Origin: an uncultured Planctomycetia bacterium | GTDB taxonomy: Bacteria > Omnitrophota > Gorgyraeia > 2-01-FULL-45-10 | Direction of reading: 5' to 3' | Assembly (NCBI GenBank): GCA_964352425.1 | Contig: CAYGRZ010000002.1 | Span: 18,240 to 82,239 of the forward strand | DNA length: 64,000 nt | Program-made: the position numbers and the translations under genes | Notes under the pieces: generated by a model | Told to the model about the DNA's origin: nothing | The model's input: the letters and a program-made list of their open reading frames with translations, nothing else | The model's database searches: none | Shown: piece by piece, positions 1 to 62,698 of the stretch | Layout of the letters: the number at the start of each line of letters is the position of its first letter | Position numbering within the stretch: the stretch's first letter is position 1

Positions 1-157
1 CCGAAAAACATTAAAGATAAAACCCTGCGTTCATTAACCCAGGGGATAGAATTTTTGGAATACTACTCAATGCGTTGGGAGTCAATAAGCCGCATACTTT
101 AGTTCAGGTATTCATAAGAGGCGGTAAGAGCAGCTGGGTGCCCTAGATTTTGAGGTA

Positions 158-2046: not shown

Positions 2047-3141
2047 ATGAAAATACTCAGGGATTACATATTAAAAGAGTTCTTCCATTCGTTCTCGCTC
2101 TCGATAATCGTCTTCACGTTCGTCCTCTTAGTCGGTAACATCATACGGCTTGCCGACCTCGTCATCAATAAGGGCGTCGATATAGTCTCCGTCTTCAAAC
2201 TCTTTTTCTATCTCGTGCCGTGGCTGCTGAGTTTCACGCTGCCGATCGCGGGGCTTACCGCGGTCATCCTGACCTTCGGCAGGTTCTCGAGCGACGGGGA
2301 GCTCGTCGCGATGAAGGCGAGCGGGATCTCGCTCTACCGGGTCGCGTCGCCGATCCTGATGATCGGTGTGATCCTGAGTTTCGTCGCGTTCCTGCTGAAC
2401 GACCAGATATCGTCGAACGCTTCATTCGCCTCGCGCCAGGTGATCAAGGAGATAGGGATAAAGAGCCCGGCGGCGTATCTCGAGGAAGGCACCTTCATAC
2501 GGGGGTTTGAGAACTATGTCATCTTCATCTACGAGATACGAGGCAACAAGCTGAAGAACATAAGGATATACCAGCCGCAGGAGGGTAAGGCGACCCGCAC
2601 GATCGTGGCGGAGCAGGGCGAGATAAATTCCATTCCCTCAAAAAACATCATAGAGCTGAAGCTCTTCAACGGGACGAGCGAGGAGCCGTCCCCGACCGAC
2701 CCGGAGAGTTTCTACAAGTTGAATTTCAAGACGTACTTCATGTCGCTCGACCTGACGAAGGTCTTCAAGAAGGAGAAGATCCAGAAGAAGACCAGAGAGA
2801 TGACCGTAAGCGAGCTGCATGAGCAGATAGCCGACTATGCCGCGCAGAAGATAGACACGACGCCGCTGTATGTGGAGATCTACAAGAAGATAAACATGTC
2901 GGCCTCCGGGATCGTCCTCGTCCTGCTCGGGATACCGCTGGGCATACGGGCGCACAGGAGCGAGAAGTCGATAGGGTTCGGGATAAGCTTGCTCCTTTTT
3001 GCCGTCTACTGGGGGGCGTTTTTGGGAGGAGTGGCGCTCGCGCTGAAGGGCGCCGTGCCGCCCGCTATAGGTGTTTCCCTGCCGAATGTCGCGTTTTTCA
3101 TGTTGGGAACAGTGCTGTTCATACATACCGCAAGGAGGTAG
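2047..3141 (+). CDS. LptF/LptG family LPS export permease (YjgP/YjgQ)
   Basis: 364 aa. N-terminus MKILRDYILKEFF plus multiple TM segments and a periplasmic beta-jellyroll region typical of LptF/G. Confidence 0.75.
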   Translation: MKILRDYILKEFFHSFSLSIIVFTFVLLVGNIIRLADLVINKGVDIVSVFKLFFYLVPWLLSFTLPIAGLTAVILTFGRFSSDGELVAMKASGISLYRVASPILMIGVILSFVAFLLNDQISSNASFASRQVIKEIGIKSPAAYLEEGTFIRGFENYVIFIYEIRGNKLKNIRIYQPQEGKATRTIVAEQGEINSIPSKNIIELKLFNGTSEEPSPTDPESFYKLNFKTYFMSLDLTKVFKKEKIQKKTREMTVSELHEQIADYAAQKIDTTPLYVEIYKKINMSASGIVLVLLGIPLGIRAHRSEKSIGFGISLLLFAVYWGAFLGGVALALKGAVPPAIGVSLPNVAFFMLGTVLFIHTARR

Positions 3142-3290
3142 CAAATATGGGACAGAAAAGCCAGTACCAGATCGAGAATAAACAGAGGCAAAAGAGGAAA
3201 AAGGCGAGGCAGAAACTCACCAAGAAGGGCGAGAACCTGTCTGAATTTTATTACGGGAAGTTCTACATAAAGCAGGGCTAGGCGGGCGGC

Positions 3291-4232
3291 ATGTACGACA
3301 TAGCGATACTGGGCGGCGGGCCCGCGGGCCTGACCGCGGGGCTCTACGGGAGCCGCGCGAGGATGAAGACCGTGCTGATCGAGCGCGCGGCGTGCGGCGG
3401 CCAGATCCTCATCACCGATACGATAGAGAATTTCCCGGGTTTTCCGGAAGGGATCAAAGGGCCCGACCTTGCTGACTGGATGGCCAAACAGGCCGCTCAC
3501 TTCGGCCTGGAGGTCACGCTCGCCGAGGCCAAGTCGGTGGCTTTGGGTGAGGACGGGGGAGGGCCTTTTTCGGTCGAGCTTTCCGACGGCGCGAAGGTGC
3601 GGGCGCTCGCGCTCATACTGTCGACGGGAGCGAGATGGAACGAGCTGGGGATCCCCGGCGAAAAGGAGCTCGCGGGCAGGGGCGTGTCTTATTGCGCCAC
3701 CTGCGACGGCCCGCTCTTCAGGAATAAAGAGGTCGTGGTGGTCGGCGGCGGCGATACCGCGCTCGAGGACGCGCTCTTCCTGGCGAAGTTCGCCGGCAAG
3801 GTGACGGTGGTCCACCGCCGCGAACGCTTACGGGCGACGAAGATACTGCAGGAGCGCGCGCTCGCGAATAAGAAGGTGGAGTTCTGCCTGAATTCGGTCG
3901 CGGTGAGGATAACCGGCGGCGCGAAGTGTGAGGCACTCGAAGTGAAGGATGTCACTACCGGCAGCACGAAAGCCATGAGGGCGGATGGCGTGTTTGTCCT
4001 GATAGGGATGGCGCCAAACTCAGGTTTAGTAAAGGGCATCGTGAAGCTTGATGAGAAGGGCTACGTGCTGTGCGATGACGATATGAAGACCTCGGTAGGC
4101 GGGATATTCGCCTGCGGGGATGTCCGTAAGAAGCTCCTGCGGCAGGTCGTGACCGCCGCAGGCGACGGAGCGACCGCGGCCTTCAGCGCCCAGCATTACG
4201 TCGAGCGCCTGAAAGGCGTCGAGTACAAATAG
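3291..4232 (+). CDS. trxB: Thioredoxin-disulfide reductase
   Basis: GGGPAG FAD motif, CATC redox-active dithiol, second GGGDTA NADPH motif. 313 aa. Confidence 0.9.
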   Translation: MYDIAILGGGPAGLTAGLYGSRARMKTVLIERAACGGQILITDTIENFPGFPEGIKGPDLADWMAKQAAHFGLEVTLAEAKSVALGEDGGGPFSVELSDGAKVRALALILSTGARWNELGIPGEKELAGRGVSYCATCDGPLFRNKEVVVVGGGDTALEDALFLAKFAGKVTVVHRRERLRATKILQERALANKKVEFCLNSVAVRITGGAKCEALEVKDVTTGSTKAMRADGVFVLIGMAPNSGLVKGIVKLDEKGYVLCDDDMKTSVGGIFACGDVRKKLLRQVVTAAGDGATAAFSAQHYVERLKGVEYK

Positions 4233-4339
4233 TATTGACTACGCATAGGGTTCGTGTTAATTTAATCGTGCATATTTTTCCGATTGATGTGCCGAGATCC
4301 TTCGCTTCGCTCAGGATCGGCCGATAAGAAGACCATGAT

Positions 4340-4414
4340 GCCGAGGTAGCTCACTGGTAGAGCGCTGCCCTGAAAAGGCAGGCGTTGCGTGTTCGATTCA
4401 CGCCCTCGGCACCA
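4340..4414 (+). tRNA. tRNA-Phe (anticodon GAA) with encoded CCA
   Basis: Cloverleaf read manually: acceptor GCCGAGG/CCTCGGC, D-arm GCTC/GAGC, anticodon stem CTGCC/GGCAG with loop CTGAAAA, T-arm GCGTG-TTCGATT-CACGC, discriminator A then CCA. Confidence 0.85.
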
Positions 4415-4481
4415 TTCTTCGGATTCACTGCGGCCACCTATCACACTGGTTGGTAGGCCTTGTGAATCCTCAGAATTCCAA

Positions 4482-4507
4482 GGGGGAAAACGGGGTTTTC
4501 CCCCTTT
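4482..4507 (+). terminator. Hairpin GGGGGAAAAC-ggg-GTTTTCCCCC followed by TTTGG, a possible terminator after the tRNA
   Basis: Perfect 10-bp stem seen directly, with a short T-run. Confidence 0.45.
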
Positions 4508-4592
4508 GGCGTTCGCTCACCAGTAATCATTCCAGGTTCGCTCACTGAACCCCCTTTCCTTAAAGGAGTCTCAATCAATCTCGGGCCTACTT

Positions 4593-4631
4593 TATACAAG
4601 AGAAGGAAAAATATTTTCCTTCTCTTGTATA
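4593..4631. terminator. 39-bp perfect palindrome (18-bp arms), candidate bidirectional terminator
   Basis: TATACAAGAGAAGGAAAA-ata-TTTTCCTTCTCTTGTATA, AT-rich on both sides. Confidence 0.45.
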
Positions 4632-4729
4632 TCTTATCCTTTTAAAAAGGAAATAATAGCCTCAATTACATTGACCACATTATAGGCGAGTGGTATTATA
4701 ATTCTACAGTCGAAAAAGAGGAGGCGCTT

Positions 4730-5158: not shown

Positions 5159-5717
5159 CAAGAAGAGAGCGATGCGAAACATAAGGAACGTCTTCAGGGG
5201 CAGGCTGCTTAAGGTGATGGTGAAGCAGCAGCGCCTGCCCAGCGGCTATCTCGCCATCTTCGAGATGATCGAGCACCCCGGCGCCAGCCTTGTGGTGCCA
5301 TTCCTGGGCAGGGACAGGATAATAATGCTGAGGCAACTCAGGCCGGTCATCGGGTCCCACATATATGAACTTCCTGCCGGCACGCTCGATAGGAATGAGA
5401 CGCCGCTGGCATGCGCCCGACGGGAGATCGTAGAAGAGACGGGGTACTCCGCCAGGCGTTTTACTCTTTTGGGAAAGATATATCCGGTCCCCGGCTACTC
5501 GACGGAGAGGATATACCTATATAAAGCCACAGGATTGAAGAAAGTAATACACGATTGTAGGGCACGCTTAAGTGTGCCCTACCAGCGCCATGGAGAAGAG
5601 GATGAGGTCATAGAATCTTTCGTTGTCACAAAGTCTGCAATAAGAAAGCTCTTCAGGAGCGGAAAGATCACCGACGCAAAGACCATAGCCGCCCTCGCCT
5701 TCTGCGGATGGCTCTGA
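5145..5717 (+). CDS. NUDIX hydrolase (ADP-ribose pyrophosphatase-like) carrying an in-frame palindromic insertion
   Basis: NUDIX box GTLDRNETPLACARREIVEETGY. Start uncertain (Met codons at 5145 and 5172). Residues IHDCRARLSVPYQRH are encoded by a REP-like palindrome. Confidence 0.7.
   Translation: MRAYSKKRAMRNIRNVFRGRLLKVMVKQQRLPSGYLAIFEMIEHPGASLVVPFLGRDRIIMLRQLRPVIGSHIYELPAGTLDRNETPLACARREIVEETGYSARRFTLLGKIYPVPGYSTERIYLYKATGLKKVIHDCRARLSVPYQRHGEEDEVIESFVVTKSAIRKLFRSGKITDAKTIAALAFCGWL
5554..5582. repeat. REP-like palindromic element copy (ATTGTAGGGCACG-CTTAAG-TGTGCCCTAC) inside the NUDIX CDS
   Basis: Matches the perfect palindrome at 36655-36686 at 28 of 29 aligned positions. Confidence 0.6.
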
Positions 5718-36608: not shown

Positions 36609-36642
36609 CGACGTAGGGGAGGTTTAAACCTCCCCTACGTCG
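36609..36642. repeat. Perfect 34-bp palindrome CGACGTAGGGGAGG-TTTAAA-CCTCCCCTACGTCG
   Basis: Seen directly. GTTTAAAC core. Confidence 0.7.
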
Positions 36643-36654
36643 GGAGTTACTGTA

Positions 36655-36686
36655 ATTGTAGGGCACGTTTAAACGTGCCCTACAAT
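36655..36686. repeat. Perfect 32-bp palindrome ATTGTAGGGCACG-TTTAAA-CGTGCCCTACAAT (REP-like element; diverged copy at 5554-5582)
   Basis: Seen directly. Second of two tandem palindromes between the CpxP-like gene and the lexA promoter. Confidence 0.7.
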
Positions 36687-45213: not shown

Positions 45214-45383
45214 ATGGGATATCAAGGCGGTGGTGGCGGCGGATACGGCGGAATGCCGAGAGAAATGCACAAAGCGGTGTGCGCTGAGTGTAAGAAGGAA
45301 TGCGAAGTGCCCTTTAAGCCGAGAGAGGACCGTCCGGTATATTGCAAGGACTGTTTCTCGAAGCGCAAAGATAGCGGCCGTTA
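45214..45383 (+). CDS. CxxC-x17-CxxC domain mini-protein (56 aa, Gly-rich N-terminus)
   Basis: CAEC-KKECEVPFKPREDRPVY-CKDC, a paralog of the 40120 protein. GGGAGG RBS. Not in the ORF track (under 60 aa). Confidence 0.55.
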
Positions 45384-45408
45384 AGTAGAGTCGCGGATCC
45401 GCATTAAA

Positions 45409-45443
45409 AAGGCCCGTCATTTTCACGGCGGGTCTTTTTTTTG
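45409..45443. terminator. Bidirectional rho-independent terminator between convergent genes
   Basis: Stem AGGCCCGTC/GGCGGGTCT (two G-U pairs) with a T8 run downstream and an A-run upstream. Confidence 0.6.
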
Positions 45444-45471
45444 TTCACCCTGCCGCCATCCTTCGACAGGC

Positions 45472-47211
45472 TCAGGATGGCGGTCCGAGCCTGTCGAAGG
45501 CCGCCATCCGCGAAACGGCATCCCGCCGTATCTTTTTCGTGGCCGTTTTCGGCAGCTCCTCATACGATACGCCGAAACTCACTATCCTTTTATACGGGGC
45601 GAGGCCTTTACCAAGCCGCGCGATCTCTGACGATATCGCGGATGTGACCGCATCCGGCGCGGTGATCCCGCTCTGCCCGAAGTGCTCCATATCGGGCACG
45701 ATGACGGCGTAGACCTCTTCGTGCCCTTTGCGTAAGCCCCGGCCGGCGGTCCTGGCCATCACGCATATCTCTTGTATATACGGGCTCTTCCCGACGACCA
45801 TCTCAACCTCTTCAGGGAATACCTTCTTGCCGCTGCCCAGGACGATCATGTTCCGCTTCCTGCCCGTTACGAACAGGAAGGCGTCCTTATCAAAATATCC
45901 GAGGTCGCCCGTATAGAACCATCCGTCCCTGATAACCTGGGCGGTCTTTTCGGGATTCCCGAAATAGCCTTTCATCACGTGGGGCCCGCGCGTCAGGATC
46001 TGGCCCTCGGCATCGGTGTCTCGCTCTTTCAGTATCTTCACCTCGACCCCGGGCAGCGGTTTTCCGACCGAGCCGAACCTGTTCTGTTCGAATGTATTGA
46101 CCGATATGACCGGAGCCGTTTCGGTCAGGCCGTATCCCTGCAGGACGCGGAAGCCGAGCGCGTTCATGTCGATCTCGACATCGGCGTCGAGCGGCGCGCC
46201 CCCGCTGATAAACGTATGCAGCCGGCCGCCGAATTCACGGTGGATCGAGCCGAAGAATACGCGTCCGGCCCGTATATTATATGTGACAAGCGCTCTCGAC
46301 GCGGACAGGGCCCGCCCGAAGAGCCATCGCCTGAACGGGGAGAGCCTGGCGGCCTTCTTCATGATGCCGGAGTGGATCAGCTTCAGGACGAGCGGTACGC
46401 AGATGATCGCGGTAGTCCCGGTCTGGCGCATCAGCGGCAGGAGCGTGCTCGTCTTCAGGGCGTCGCAGTAGGTCACACACGAGCCGGCATAAAGCGGCGC
46501 GATCAGGCCGCCGGTTATCTCGAGCATGTGGCTTAAGGGGAGCACGGAGAGGAGCCGCTCTTTCGGCGTGCAACGGATGATCTGGCTGAACTCGAGCACC
46601 TGGAAGAGGAGGCTCCTGCAGCTTATCTCGACGCCTTTGGCGACGCCGGTCGTGCCCGAGGTGTAGATGATGATCGCCGTGTCTTCCGGATAGATGTCAC
46701 GGAGGCGTTCCTTGCCCCTGTGGGGGCGCAGCTTGTGGAGCTGGATGACGTCCGTGCGCTCGCTCCTGTCGAGCAGTATGATGTTCGCCAGATACGGCAG
46801 GACGTTACGCAGGCGGTCTATGGCCGGAAGATACTTCGCGCTGACGAATATGCACTTTGCCCGGCTGTCGTTTAAGATAAACTCGACTTCCGGGTCAGAG
46901 AGCTTGACGTCGAGCGGGAGGATGGCGCCGCCGCAGGATATGATGCCGAAGTATGCCGCGGCCCACTCGGGCCTGTTCTCGGAGAATATCGCGACCCGGT
47001 CGCCCTTCTGCACGCCGAGGTTTATAAGGACCGAGGAGATGCTGACGACGCGCGCGCCCAGCTTGACGAAGGAGATCTCCTTGAAGGAGCCGTCCTCGTT
47101 CTTTATCCGCAGCGCCGTCTTGTTGCCGTATTTCTTATTGATCGCCTCCAGTATCTGGCTGATCGTGACGCCCTGCAGGACGTTCCTGACCATCGAGTCG
47201 ATCATACGCAC
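45472..47211 (-). CDS. AMP-dependent synthetase/ligase (long-chain fatty acid-CoA ligase-like)
   Basis: AMP-binding motif YTSGTTGVAKGV. 579 aa. Confidence 0.8.
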   Translation of the reverse strand: MRMIDSMVRNVLQGVTISQILEAINKKYGNKTALRIKNEDGSFKEISFVKLGARVVSISSVLINLGVQKGDRVAIFSENRPEWAAAYFGIISCGGAILPLDVKLSDPEVEFILNDSRAKCIFVSAKYLPAIDRLRNVLPYLANIILLDRSERTDVIQLHKLRPHRGKERLRDIYPEDTAIIIYTSGTTGVAKGVEISCRSLLFQVLEFSQIIRCTPKERLLSVLPLSHMLEITGGLIAPLYAGSCVTYCDALKTSTLLPLMRQTGTTAIICVPLVLKLIHSGIMKKAARLSPFRRWLFGRALSASRALVTYNIRAGRVFFGSIHREFGGRLHTFISGGAPLDADVEIDMNALGFRVLQGYGLTETAPVISVNTFEQNRFGSVGKPLPGVEVKILKERDTDAEGQILTRGPHVMKGYFGNPEKTAQVIRDGWFYTGDLGYFDKDAFLFVTGRKRNMIVLGSGKKVFPEEVEMVVGKSPYIQEICVMARTAGRGLRKGHEEVYAVIVPDMEHFGQSGITAPDAVTSAISSEIARLGKGLAPYKRIVSFGVSYEELPKTATKKIRRDAVSRMAAFDRLGPPS

Positions 47212-50127: not shown

Positions 50128-50165
50128 TCCCTCGGCACGAAGCTCGAAAAAATTTCTAACGGGGC

Positions 50166-50194
50166 TTGGGATTTAGTGTCTTCGGGAGTATAAT
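50166..50194 (+). promoter_or_regulatory. Conserved promoter cassette copy (TTGGGA-17-TATAAT, spacer ending TTCGGGAG); predicted leaderless transcript for the archaemetzincin-like gene
   Basis: GCTTGGGAtttagtgtcTTCGGGAGTATAAT. The ATG at 50202 lies 7-8 nt after the -10. Confidence 0.5.
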
Positions 50195-50201
50195 CTGAAG
50201 T

Positions 50202-52893: not shown

Positions 52894-52942
52894 GCCTGCG
52901 CCACGTACTATGACTTCAGGCATATCCCGAGCATATTTTCGC

Positions 52943-52971
52943 TTGGGATTTTGTATGCGCCGCCCATAGTA
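52943..52971 (+). promoter_or_regulatory. Degenerate copy of the conserved promoter cassette (TTGGGA-17-ATAGTA)
   Basis: CATATTTTCGCTTGGGATTTTGT is nearly identical to the upstream half of the 53313 copy. The -10 is weak. Confidence 0.3.
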
Positions 52972-53271: not shown

Positions 53272-53312
53272 TCAGGCGAGACTGCACACTGGAAATCCCA
53301 GGCGAATTTTCG

Positions 53313-53341
53313 CTTGGGATTTTGTGTGTTCGGGAGTATAA
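53313..53341 (+). promoter_or_regulatory. Conserved promoter cassette copy (TTGGGA-17-TATAAT) upstream of the PilZ-glgB unit
   Basis: CGCTTGGGAttttgtgtgTTCGGGAGTATAAT. An inverted repeat AAATCCCAGG/CTTGGGATTT overlaps the -35. Confidence 0.5.
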
Positions 53342-53401
53342 TCCTTGACATATGGCCCTGATGGCATATGGAAGCTAACGCGCATTTTTTAGGAGGAGAG
53401 T

Positions 53402-56423: not shown

Positions 56424-56458
56424 AAACCGCCGGCCGTAAAGTCTCAGGCATATTTTGC

Positions 56459-56487
56459 TTGGGACTTTTTGTTTTCGGGAGTATAAT
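56459..56487 (+). promoter_or_regulatory. Conserved promoter cassette copy (TTGGGA-17-TATAAT) upstream of the lipoprotein-nitrilase-MBL-AsmA operon
   Basis: CATATTTTGCTTGGGACtttttgtTTTCGGGAGTATAAT. Confidence 0.5.
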
Positions 56488-56528
56488 TCTGGTAGCACAC
56501 CGGTACCGTTATCAAGAAGGGAGAAAAA

Positions 56529-60299: not shown

Positions 60300-62069
60300 C
60301 TACCGGAGCTGGCGGCGCATCCGCCAGATCTTCCTGATCGACTCGAAGAATATGATGACGACGAGCGCGGTCATGATTATGGAGAGTGTGGCGTTCAGGT
60401 TGCCCTGGAAGGTGTGTTTCGGCAGGTAATTTCCCGTCACGTTCTCGACGCCGGCCGCGACGGTCGTCACGAACATGAAGACCGCCGGGACGAACGTGAT
60501 GAGCCCGTAGGCCCGCCGCCGCGAATGTTTCAGGATATACACCGTCCCCACCGATAATGCCAGTGTCGCCAGGAGCTGGTTCGCCACCCCGAACATCGGC
60601 CAGATCGTCGTGATGTCGCCGTTAAAGACCAGGTATCCCCACAGGAAGCTTATCGCCCCGCCGCTTAAGATTATCGCCGGTAGTTTCGTGCTCTTCCACC
60701 TCGGCAGGCCGAGCTTGATCAGCTCGTCGACGATATACCGCGCCACGCGCGTGCCCGTGTCGACGGTGGTGAGGATAAAAAGCGCCTCGAACATGATGGC
60801 GAAATGGTACCAGTAGCCCATGAGGCCCTTCATGCCGGGGATGGATGAGAGTATGAGCGACATGCCCGCCGCAAGCGAGACCGCCCCTCCCGTCCTGCCC
60901 GCGAGCGTCTCGCCCGCCATCCGCTCGAGATCCGCAAGCTGCGTCACATTGAACCCGAGCTTATGGAACACCTCGACGGGAACGTTGATCGCGAAATAAT
61001 CGCCCGGCAGGAGCACCGTCGCGGCAATGAGCGCCATGACCGACACGACCGCCTCGACGAGCATCGCGCCGAACCCGAGCATCCGGATATCCGATTCCTT
61101 GTTGATCATCTTCGGCGTCGTGCCGGAAGCGACGAGTGAGTGAAAGCCGCTTATGGCGCCGCAGGCTATCGTGATGCAGACGAACGGCCAGACCTTGCCC
61201 GGTATGATCGGCCCGCCGCCGTGGATATAGGGCGTCACAGCGGGCATCTTCAGCTGCGGGTTCACGATAAAGATGCTTACCGCAAGGAGCGCGATCGTCC
61301 CGATCTTCATGTATGAGCTTAAGTAATCGCGCGGGCACAGGAGGAGCCACACCGGCAGTACCGACGCGATGAAGCCGTAGACGGGGAGGATGACCGACAG
61401 TGTGGGACGCGAGAAGAGGAAAAAGTGGCCGAGGGAAGATCTCGCCAGCGGTTCGCCCAGGACGACGCCGATGAGAACTATCGCGACGCCGATGATCGAC
61501 GCCTCGACGACCCTGCCCGGCCGAAGGCGGTACATGTATAACGCCATCATTAGTGCCGCCGGTATCGTCATCGCGATGGTGAATGTCGCCCACGCGCTCT
61601 CGCAGAGCGCGTTCACTACGACGAGCGCCAGTCCCGCCAGCGCCGTGACGATGATGAAGAGGATCGCGAACCCCGTTATGACGCCGGCCGTCTTCGACAC
61701 GTTTTTTCTGGCGAGCCTGGTGAGCGACAGGCCCTTCGTCCGCACGGAGGCGAAGAGGATCACCATGTCATGGACCGCGCCCCCGATGACGGCGCCGATC
61801 AGTATCCAGAGGAACCCCGGCAGGAAACCGAACTGCGCGGCCAGCACCGGGCCGACGAGCGGGCCGGCGCCCGATATCGCCGCGAAATGGTGGCCGAAGA
61901 GGACATAGCGGTTCGTGGGGTGGTAGTCCCTGCCGTCCTTGAATGTATGGGCGGGCGTCCGGATCCGGTCATTGGCGACCAGCACCTTCGTGATGATGAA
62001 TTTCGCGTAAAATCGGTACGCCAGCGCGAATACGAGCATGGCGACCACGAGCAATGTCAGGGCGTGCAT
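60300..62069 (-). CDS. cstA: Carbon starvation protein A (peptide/pyruvate transporter family)
   Basis: N-terminus [25 protein letters not shown]...[23 protein letters not shown] is highly characteristic of CstA. 589 aa, polytopic. Confidence 0.9.
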
Positions 62070-62346
62070 AGATGAATAAGGTAATGTAAAACGGGGCCGG
62101 TGTCAAGAATTCTTGCGGTTACTTGCCGCCGGCTAAAGGATCGCGAAAATCTTCCGGGTCCTGCCGCTCGGTCGCCTTTCGGCGCTTGCGCGGGGTTCAC
62201 AATTAACACGCTGACAGGCGGGTGTCTGTACTGCCCCATCCCGCGCTTCGCGCCTCAAGGCTGGACCGAGCGTCACCCGTAAGATTTTCGCTTGCATATG
62301 GTGATAGCCGCAATGCCCAAAAGTTCCGCCGCCCATTCCCCTTAAG

Positions 62347-62635
62347 AAAGATTTTCGGCTTTCGTAGAGTAACGGAACTTTCGGATGCGTGCCGCATCAA
62401 ACCAAGCCCGGAGGCCTGGGTGTTGAGCGGGGCCTAAAAATTGCGAGCGGGCATGGATTTTTAGCCCTTGATACCTATTACATGCTAAAAAGAGCGAGCA
62501 ATTTTTCGGAGTGTGGTTTTCCTCGCAGGGGAAAACCACACGTCCACGCGAGGCACCCAGGCCGCAAGGGCTTGCTCTACTATGTGCAAGGCACCTCCCG
62601 AAAGTAAACGCTCTCAAGAAGCCGAAAATCTTTCC
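62347..62635. repeat. ~290-bp element bounded by perfect 15-bp terminal inverted repeats (AAAGATTTTCGGCTT / AAGCCGAAAATCTTT) with nested internal inverted repeats; candidate structured RNA or MITE-like element
   Basis: Outer IR 62347-62361 / 62621-62635. Nested IR CAAGCCC..GGCCTGGGTG (62402-62422) / CACCCAGGCC..GGGCTTG (62548-62568). Internal 12-bp hairpin GTGTGGTTTTCC-tcgcag-GGGAAAACCACAC at 62511-62541. Confidence 0.5.
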
Positions 62636-62650
62636 CTCCCATGTTTTTGC

Positions 62651-62679
62651 TTGGCGTTTTCGCCTCTGGGGGTTATAAT
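62651..62679 (+). promoter_or_regulatory. Conserved promoter cassette variant (TTGGCG-17-TATAAT) for the Cache sensor gene
   Basis: TTTTTGCTTGGCGttttcgcctctgggggtTATAAT, followed by a GAGGG RBS and the ATG at 62699. Confidence 0.5.
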
Positions 62680-62698
62680 TATTGCACAAAGAGGGCTC

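Follow-up and report, generated by a model that had tools for sequence, protein, structure and literature searches.

The spacer between cstA and a divergent Cache-domain gene in an uncultured Omnitrophota bacterium holds a 289-bp nested inverted repeat, here called element B, which is probably one copy of a lineage-specific, non-coding, hairpin-forming family of modular intergenic repeats in Candidatus Omnitrophota. The repeat occurs in multiple copies, is built of arms around a cargo, conserves its pairing, and turns over between close strains. In the window (the whole 64-kb stretch of DNA that was analyzed), it lies outside both of the predicted transcripts. A canonical member of the family would comprise a left arm, a variable inner cargo, and a right arm, with the two arms pairing into a long closing helix. 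The cargo in the window is a branched core of ~190 nt that is multi-copy in its own right. A literature search returned nothing on repeats in Omnitrophota, and the family is best explained as one previously undescribed in this phylum, closest in kind to miniature inverted-repeat transposable elements (MITEs) and to REP/REPIN/BIME systems.

Structure of element B and its spacer

The spacer upstream of cstA is 629 bp long, and the nearest relatives of the CstA protein are all found in Candidatus Omnitrophota metagenome-assembled genomes (MAGs). The features of the spacer and of the genes on either side are collected in Table 1.

Table 1. Features of the cstA/Cache spacer and its flanking genes, in window coordinates
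Feature	Position	Strand	Remarks
CstA	60300-62069	-	Pfam E 2e-203
Predicted cstA promoter	62078-62106	-	-35 TTGACA 62101-62106, 17-nt spacer, -10 TACCTT 62078-62083, 8 nt, ATG at 62069
Putative right-type arm remnant	62107-62131	-	GGCGGC AAGTAACCGC AAGAATTC, sequence read directly; abuts cstA -35
Element A	62143-62291	-	149-nt rod-like hairpin, arms GCGAAAATCTTCCGGGT / ACCCGTAAGATTTTCGC; z -6.2 and -8.0
Left-type block, reverse complement	62317-62331	+	CCCAAAAGTTCCGCC; also in L086 and L089
Element B	62346-62634	+	left arm, core cargo, right arm; 16-nt perfect ends; z ~ -9 on both strands; homologous copies
Left arm of element B	62346-62392	+	terminal motif GAAAGATTTTCGGCTT (62346-62361), left-type block CGGAACTTTCGG (62373-62384)
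Core cargo of element B	62393-62585	+	~190 nt; closed by CAAGCCC (62403-62409) / GGGCTTG (62568-62574) and by GGCCTGGGTG (62413-62422) / CACCCAGGCC (62554-62563); side hairpin 62511-62541
Right arm of element B	62586-62634	+	right-type block CCGAAAGTAAACGC (62598-62611), terminal motif AAGCCGAAAATCTTTC (62619-62634)
Cache-gene promoter	62651-62679	+	TTGGCG-17 nt-TATAAT, 10/12 consensus positions; downstream of element B; kept in L089
Cache-domain protein	62699 onward	+	

The ends of element B are complementary at 16 of 16 nucleotides and stand 257 nt apart, slightly extending the 15-bp terminal inverted repeats that had been described in an earlier reading of this DNA from its letters (the sequence-only reading). 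The second long-range pair and the 12-bp stem noticed at that stage are both present, the stem being formed by GTGTGGTTTTCC (62511-62522) and GGAAAACCACAC (62530-62541). The arrangement had also been likened to the layers of an onion. The nested pairs are there, but the interior of the closing helix is branched and does not form a simple rod.

The structure of element B is real, highly non-random, and far beyond chance. A 300-nt stretch holding the element has a minimum free energy of -141.9 kcal/mol on the + strand (z -9.05) and of -136.4 kcal/mol on the - strand (z -9.30), compared with about -92 kcal/mol for shuffled sequences, and none of 200 shuffles was as stable on either strand. G-U pairs are similarly distributed between the strands, with 9 on the + strand versus 6 on the - strand in element B, and 2 versus 3 in element A.

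Open reading frames of 72 codons (62389-62607, + strand) and 115 codons (62342-62689, - strand) cross element B, and one frame stays open in L086 as well. These are probably spurious gene calls over repeats, as is the deposited 178-aa protein P0213 described below. A protein-coding core was also considered, given that one frame stays open for 64 codons in two copies. This reading is rejected because the differences comprise 3 synonymous versus 6 non-synonymous changes and the frame has no start context.

The spacer as a whole would consist of two elements placed head to head. One is the intact element B, whose right arm adjoins the Cache promoter and stops 16 nt short of the Cache-gene -35. 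The other would be an eroded element facing cstA, represented by a right-arm remnant, hairpin A as its cargo, and a left-block remnant. The cstA-side remnant compares with AAAGTAAACGC..AAGAAGCC of the right arm of element B. In L003, where CstA is 84% identical, the inner hairpin ahead of cstA is a homologue of element A, with compensatory changes between the two (CTCGGTC/GACCGAG in element A versus CTCTTTC/GAAAGAG in L003). The left-type block between elements A and B is either what remains of a left arm in the element facing cstA or a partner for 62373-62384, and the same block stands just upstream of the terminal motif at the P0213 locus.

Structured DNA is also found elsewhere in the window. 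A tRNA at 4340-4411 precedes two hairpins, GGGGGAAAACGGGGTTTTCCCCC at 4483-4506 and a perfect 18-bp one at 4593-4631, in a region (4340-4640) that is among the most structured of the window. In a 200-nt sliding scan, the regions 101-350, 45300-45600, and 48100-48350 fold 3-4 SD better than expected for their GC content.

Arms, cargos, and copies at other loci

If element B belongs to a repeat family, further copies with the same ends should exist, a point already raised in the sequence-only reading. They do: the core is found at three more loci of a sister strain, and arm pairs are found in at least four Omnitrophota genomes. JGI metagenomes scanned for exact matches to the 12-bp hairpin gave three contigs, which come from a single sample. 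In L087 (the same contig as L002) the core is located upstream of cstA, in L086 it is located within a 970-bp spacer between ferredoxin-type genes, and in L088 it is located just past the stop codon of an NrnA-like DHH gene. The neighbors of the core copies are housekeeping genes. Each of these three copies has gene surroundings of its own within a single sister-strain metagenome sample, possibly within one genome. Identity to the core of element B is 97.8% in L001 (over 139 nt), 96.8% in L088 (126 nt), and 91.5% in L086 (201 nt). The block shared among the copies corresponds to approximately 62393-62585, and identity falls sharply beyond it.

A proxy for a DNA search, in which the concatenated ORF translations of element B were compared with 5.8 billion predicted proteins, gave P0213 on another NCBI contig as its single match. 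The order of blocks at this locus is that of window positions 62317-62577 (i.e., left block, terminal motif, left arm, and core), and the locus is a fifth, more diverged copy of the core. About 5 core copies and about 6 arm pairs have been documented so far. The rest of the 64-kb window outside the cstA/Cache spacer contains no copies of the core or of the arm pair, and the core is absent from ~8 Omnitrophota cstA loci among the matches listed for CstA, most of which belong to distant phyla. No transposase adjoins any of the core copies. The element shows no similarity to sequences in plasmids or phages, and the arm pattern is absent from IMG/VR contigs.

The multi-copy core has left a mark on the assemblies themselves. 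Sister-strain contigs (CstA 97% identical) end 156-198 nt upstream of cstA, and these ends match the inner part of element B at 97-98% identity, reading toward cstA. The terminal overlaps of assemblies within the core measure 139 nt (k=141 assembly) and 97 nt (JGI assembly). Breaks of independent assemblies inside the core are typical of branching at a repeat in the assembly graph.

The arms define the family beyond the core. The left-arm consensus is RAWTTTTTCG(G)CT, a short gap, and GGAACTTTYGG, while the right-arm consensus is the block CCRAAAGTAAACGC followed by 8-14 nt and then AGC(C)GAAAAATYT. The left-arm type of element B is found once in L010 and twice in L086, and it pairs with the right arm. 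The window, L089, and L010 have the right arm (CCRAAAGTAAACGC and then AGC(C)GAAAAAT), and L086 has it twice. The pairing of the arms persists in all four elements compared, with 9 of the 32 consensus pairs changed on both sides. The left and right blocks stay distinct from one another (AAAGTTCCGCC versus AAAGTAAACGC). Distinct, non-palindromic blocks of this kind indicate that the element has polarity, like the ends of a transposon.

The cargos between these arms are exchangeable. The core is the cargo in the window and in L086, while L010 and the second L086 element carry a module of ~110-150 nt (83% identity over 150 nt). In L089 the arms are found with H2 hairpins, and in L003 the cargo is an A-like hairpin, where only the terminal motif is common with the family. 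The H2 module (TCTAACCAGGTTAGA...TCTAACCTGGTTAGA) is arranged in tandem in L089 (1-172) upstream of the Cache gene, occurs once in L086 (2632-2690), and is absent from the window. In L086 the whole 970-bp spacer (2438-3408) folds as a nested super-hairpin of -397 kcal/mol, in which the right arm at 3278-3320 has a right-type arm at 2438-2482 as its partner, and the two surround several repeat modules, a 58-bp direct repeat among them.

The core is much better conserved than the arms (91-98% versus ~65-89% identity), which could mean that it has a selected function, as RNA or as a protein-binding site, rather than having spread recently. An RNA reading takes this furthest: the core or the whole of element B would be a multi-copy structured ncRNA gene with the arms as its variable closing helix, maybe a selfish RNA module riding into hairpin repeats, like ssr9/ISPpu9. 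This is a rather unlikely explanation, even though several observations suit it. The core remains nearly constant while the diverged arms around it still pair; its fold is branched, the side hairpin being conserved and the apical loop variable. Of five stem substitutions among the core copies, four preserve pairing, as G-U, on the + strand alone, and the + strand of the core points in the same direction as the downstream gene in three of four contexts. There is also a precedent for an sRNA module that inserts into REP sequences (PMC12288879). The four core copies compared differ at ~10 variable positions, too few for a covariation test.

The case against an ncRNA gene comes from transcription signals, strand symmetry, and known RNA families. 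A consensus promoter scan finds no site in front of element B on either strand, nor inside it, and in the window the element is located between two divergent promoters. The only site in the spacer that passes the scan is the Cache promoter. The motif TACTAT at 62579-62584 was considered as an internal promoter and discarded, as it is not kept in other copies of the core. Overall, the two strands are symmetric in folding energy and in G-U count. The Rfam scan that the sequence-only reading had proposed was run and gave no match that supports an RNA family: at gathering thresholds, a tRNA is the only hit in the whole window, and at E values up to 10, the cstA/Cache spacer and the L086 spacer yield only chance hairpin matches. 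Under the permissive setting, matches to microRNA precursors reflect nothing other than hairpin shape. The group II intron model D1-D4 (RF01999) scores 18.9 bits in the window against a threshold of 36 (E 0.27), and this identity is rejected because the homologous copy in L086 gives no such match. A repeat that acts at the DNA level is favored by the strand-symmetric energies and G-U counts, by the lack of a preceding promoter, and by the location outside the predicted transcripts.

Flanking promoters and turnover between strains

The position of the predicted cstA promoter is central to what element B could do for its neighbors. The arrangement TTGACA-17-TAnnnT-7..9-ATG, without a Shine-Dalgarno sequence, is kept before cstA in L003, L004, L006, L008, L021, and L093. 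The consensus scan did not report this promoter because its -10 matches at only 3 of 6 positions. Judged from this conserved spacing, the cstA mRNA in this Omnitrophota lineage appears to be leaderless. Given that the predicted promoter abuts the ATG, element B, like element A, would be located upstream of the promoter, in DNA flanked by two divergent promoters rather than in a leader.

This bears directly on the reading that had been preferred at the outset, namely a cis-regulatory leader RNA or riboswitch folded in a long cstA leader. The length of the spacer and the very stable nested pairing fit that idea, which nevertheless has to be considered extremely improbable. The predicted -35 and -10 stand at a fixed distance from the ATG, in a geometry kept in seven orthologues, with the promoter ending 8 nt before the ATG, which would leave no space for either a leader or a Shine-Dalgarno sequence; element B would thus fall outside any 5' UTR. 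The folding is strand-symmetric, Rfam offers no curated model, and the same core adjoins unrelated genes. Nor is the element kept at the orthologous position: relatives with 83-86% identity lack it in front of cstA. Short cstA spacers without hairpins are found in L004/L095, L094, and L093, while the cstA spacers of L006, L090, and L092 contain unrelated hairpin repeats. With other hairpins or none at the orthologous loci, element B is not a conserved regulator of cstA.

Unrelated hairpin repeats fill the same kind of spacer in L006, L090, L092, and L094. In L090/L091, cstA stands between two copies (2353-2486 and 4312-4445) of an unrelated hairpin repeat of 134 nt; the copies are inverted and 96% identical, and the arrangement resembles a composite transposon. 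In L094, an 86%-identical relative, two tandem copies of another hairpin repeat (of the GGTCCTTAGGCAT...ATGCCTCAGGACC type) are found downstream of cstA at 2350-2520.

The sequence-only reading had also compared the arm of element B with the upstream half of a conserved promoter cassette. The likeness is real (ATTTTCG(G)CTT), but it is short, and the exact 11-mer ATTTTCGCTTG borders element A instead. The cassette itself, ATATTTTCGCTTGGGAyTTTnGTnTTCGGGAGTATAAT, stands before several genes of the window (50160-50197, 52924-52957, 53295-53345, and 56453-56490). In the window, exact copies of ATTTTCGCTTG are found only at 52935, 53306, and 62284, the last at the edge of hairpin A.

A regulatory role could also be sought in the DNA itself. 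In such a scenario, the four AAGATTTTCG motifs together with the arms would be putative binding sites or structural DNA (a cruciform or UP-like A/T tracts) that co-regulate the cstA and Cache promoters. The 10-mer AAGATTTTCG has four exact copies in this one spacer and none elsewhere in the 64 kb, the motif resembles the upstream part of the promoter cassette, and in the window, L089, L086, and L003 a -35 follows the end of a right arm at a distance of 5-17 nt. However, arms also abut the stop codons of convergent or upstream genes with no promoter after them (in L010, L088, and the second L086 element), and close orthologues of cstA are found without these motifs. The complementarity spans the whole length of the element, far more than binding sites need, and co-regulation as the explanation for element B is highly unlikely. 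In the preferred reading as a repeat family, effects on the host, such as insulating or coupling divergent promoters, supplying an A-tract UP element, or providing 3'-end hairpins elsewhere, would be secondary.

Comparison with the sister strain indicates how quickly these spacers change. Its CstA is 97% and its Cache protein 94% identical to those of the window, and the content of its spacer is different. In L089, the same right arm and promoter are found before the Cache gene, with H2 hairpins where the window has the core. The sister-strain core is located 15 nt from the conserved cstA promoter block, where the window has element A, and it reads toward cstA, whereas the core in the window reads toward the Cache gene. 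This layout could have arisen by inversion between inverted right-type arms along with other changes, or by exchange of cargo through recombination or insertion. An in-place flip of the core between the arms of element B was considered and is rejected because the cstA-side flank in the sister strain matches the right flank of element B and not the reverse complement of its left arm.

The opposite orientations raise the idea that the segment between the inverted right-type arms (~62107-62634) is invertible and moves the core between the Cache and cstA promoters, either as a programmed switch or through recurrent recombination. Read directly, the two right-type arms face in opposite directions, and the sister strain has the core beside the other promoter, facing the other gene. 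L089 retains the right arm and Cache promoter without the core, and it also has an exact 22-mer from the left arm of element B in the opposite orientation. This explanation is very unlikely all the same. The cstA-proximal arm is a remnant with similarity over only ~10 + 5 nt, the 22-mer equals the family consensus as well, and the segment has no promoter inside and no recombinase gene seen nearby. L089 has H2 hairpins rather than an inverted element A, and a simple inversion therefore cannot turn one strain into the other. The contig breaks are equally well explained by a multi-copy core.

A bolder proposal draws on both ideas. By analogy with ssr9 or with the guide or bridge RNAs of IS110/IS605-type elements, the ~190-nt core might be a functional, self-propagating structured RNA module that inserts into the center of a dedicated hairpin scaffold, and/or the arm-flanked segment might flip as a promoter switch; this is unlikely. 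Taken jointly, a core that is an RNA module or a segment that is invertible has a similarly low probability.

Relation to known mobile repeats

Like MITEs (e.g., Correia, RUP, and Nezha), the family is small (~150-900 bp), non-coding, and intergenic, with terminal inverted repeats at several loci. It also resembles them in having members with the same ends but different insides, in forming a long hairpin, and in often lying near promoters. Arm pairs are kept as terminal inverted repeats in L010, L086, and L003. The family differs from MITEs in that none of its four complete copies shows a target-site duplication, in agreement with what the sequence-only reading saw in the window. The flanks are CCCCTTAA...CCTCCCAT in the window, TTCTATG...TCACTCC in L010, and CCCCACC...TTGACAT in L003, and in none of the three do the two sides have a visible direct repeat in common. 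Other differences include the low known copy number, the absence of an autonomous insertion sequence with the same ends among the sequences found, and the arms themselves, which have conserved left- and right-specific blocks of ~45 nt. Without a target-site duplication or a transposase having been found, element B is not a classical MITE. The MITE-like alternative offered in the sequence-only reading is therefore borne out in its main points: other copies exist, with shared ends around different insides, while the duplication and the transposase have not come to light.

The ERIC/IRU repeats of enterobacteria are imperfect intergenic palindromes of more than 100 bp, with size variants that result from insertions at internal sites. 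The family shares these three attributes (an imperfect palindrome of >100 bp, an intergenic location, and size variants through internal insertions). It has no sequence relation to ERIC/IRU and comes from another phylum, and its cargos are independent repeats themselves.

Invertons are invertible promoter segments flanked by inverted repeats. The inverted arms around an intergenic segment provide a parallel, as does the orientation of the core relative to the flanking genes, which is opposite in contigs from two close strains. The present case differs in that neither an internal promoter nor a nearby invertase gene was found, and the inner content also differs between the strains.

REP/REPIN/BIME systems are mobilized by RAYT (Y1/HUH) transposases (PMC3116915, PMC2817692, PMC3333891). 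The family shares with them a hairpin-forming extragenic repeat, no target duplication, and quick change from strain to strain. Mosaics in alternating orientation, with nesting and linkers, are also common to both, as are units placed right after stop codons or between promoters. The window spacer is such a BIME-like mosaic, in the order right-arm remnant, A, left block, left arm, core, and right arm, and further mosaics are found in the 970-bp nested modules of L086 and in the tandem H2 plus arm block of L089. The differences lie in the units. The arms here are ~45 nt long, are not self-palindromic, and do not have the GTAG/CGTC tag, and element B is much longer, with a large conserved cargo. 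Element B does not consist of two inverted short palindromic REP units, and with no REP units and no known RAYT, it falls outside the definition of a REPIN.

REP-type hairpins tagged with GTAG...CTAC (e.g., GTAGGGCACGCTTAAGTGTGCCCTAC) are found elsewhere in the window, at 5557-5582, 36613-36640, and 36659-36686, and also in L092 at 2270-2300 and 2390-2440. Hairpins with this tag are of the kind associated with RAYT transposases (PMC3733652). They are a repeat family separate from element B.

A parallel for the core is the ssr9 sRNA module of ISPpu9 (IS110 family) in Pseudomonas putida, which propagates into extragenic palindromes through an IS110 transposase acting in trans (PMC12288879). Both are structured non-coding modules in palindromic extragenic repeats, with solo copies at several loci and no target duplication. 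For the core, no IS110-type transposase or circular intermediate is known, and the likeness is by analogy only.

The spread or reshuffling of the family would take place at the DNA level. One possible route is a trans-acting enzyme, of the Y1/HUH or IS110 kind, that would recognize the hairpin ends without producing a target duplication. A second possible route is recombination between the conserved arms. That the family is mobile is suggested by its distribution and by polymorphism between strains rather than by a clean pair of filled and empty sites.

Omnitrophota are uncultured, and the non-coding DNA of the phylum is essentially undescribed. Their intergenic spacers contain long hairpin repeats of several families, and one of these families has conserved, polar arms that enclose interchangeable cargos. 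DNA close to promoters is remodeled by these repeats between strains whose proteins are still 94-97% identical. Metagenome assemblies break at exactly these repeats, leaving MAGs fragmented, and annotation runs the risk of mistaking them for riboswitches. The same repeats could serve as strain markers. As the evidence stands, the family is of an ordinary kind, found in an unusual host. Should the core turn out to act as an RNA module, or the segment to be invertible, the family would offer a new way into mobile-element biology in Omnitrophota; an RNA module carried in a hairpin scaffold, or a flipping segment, would amount to a new modular scaffold-plus-cargo mobile system in an uncultured phylum.
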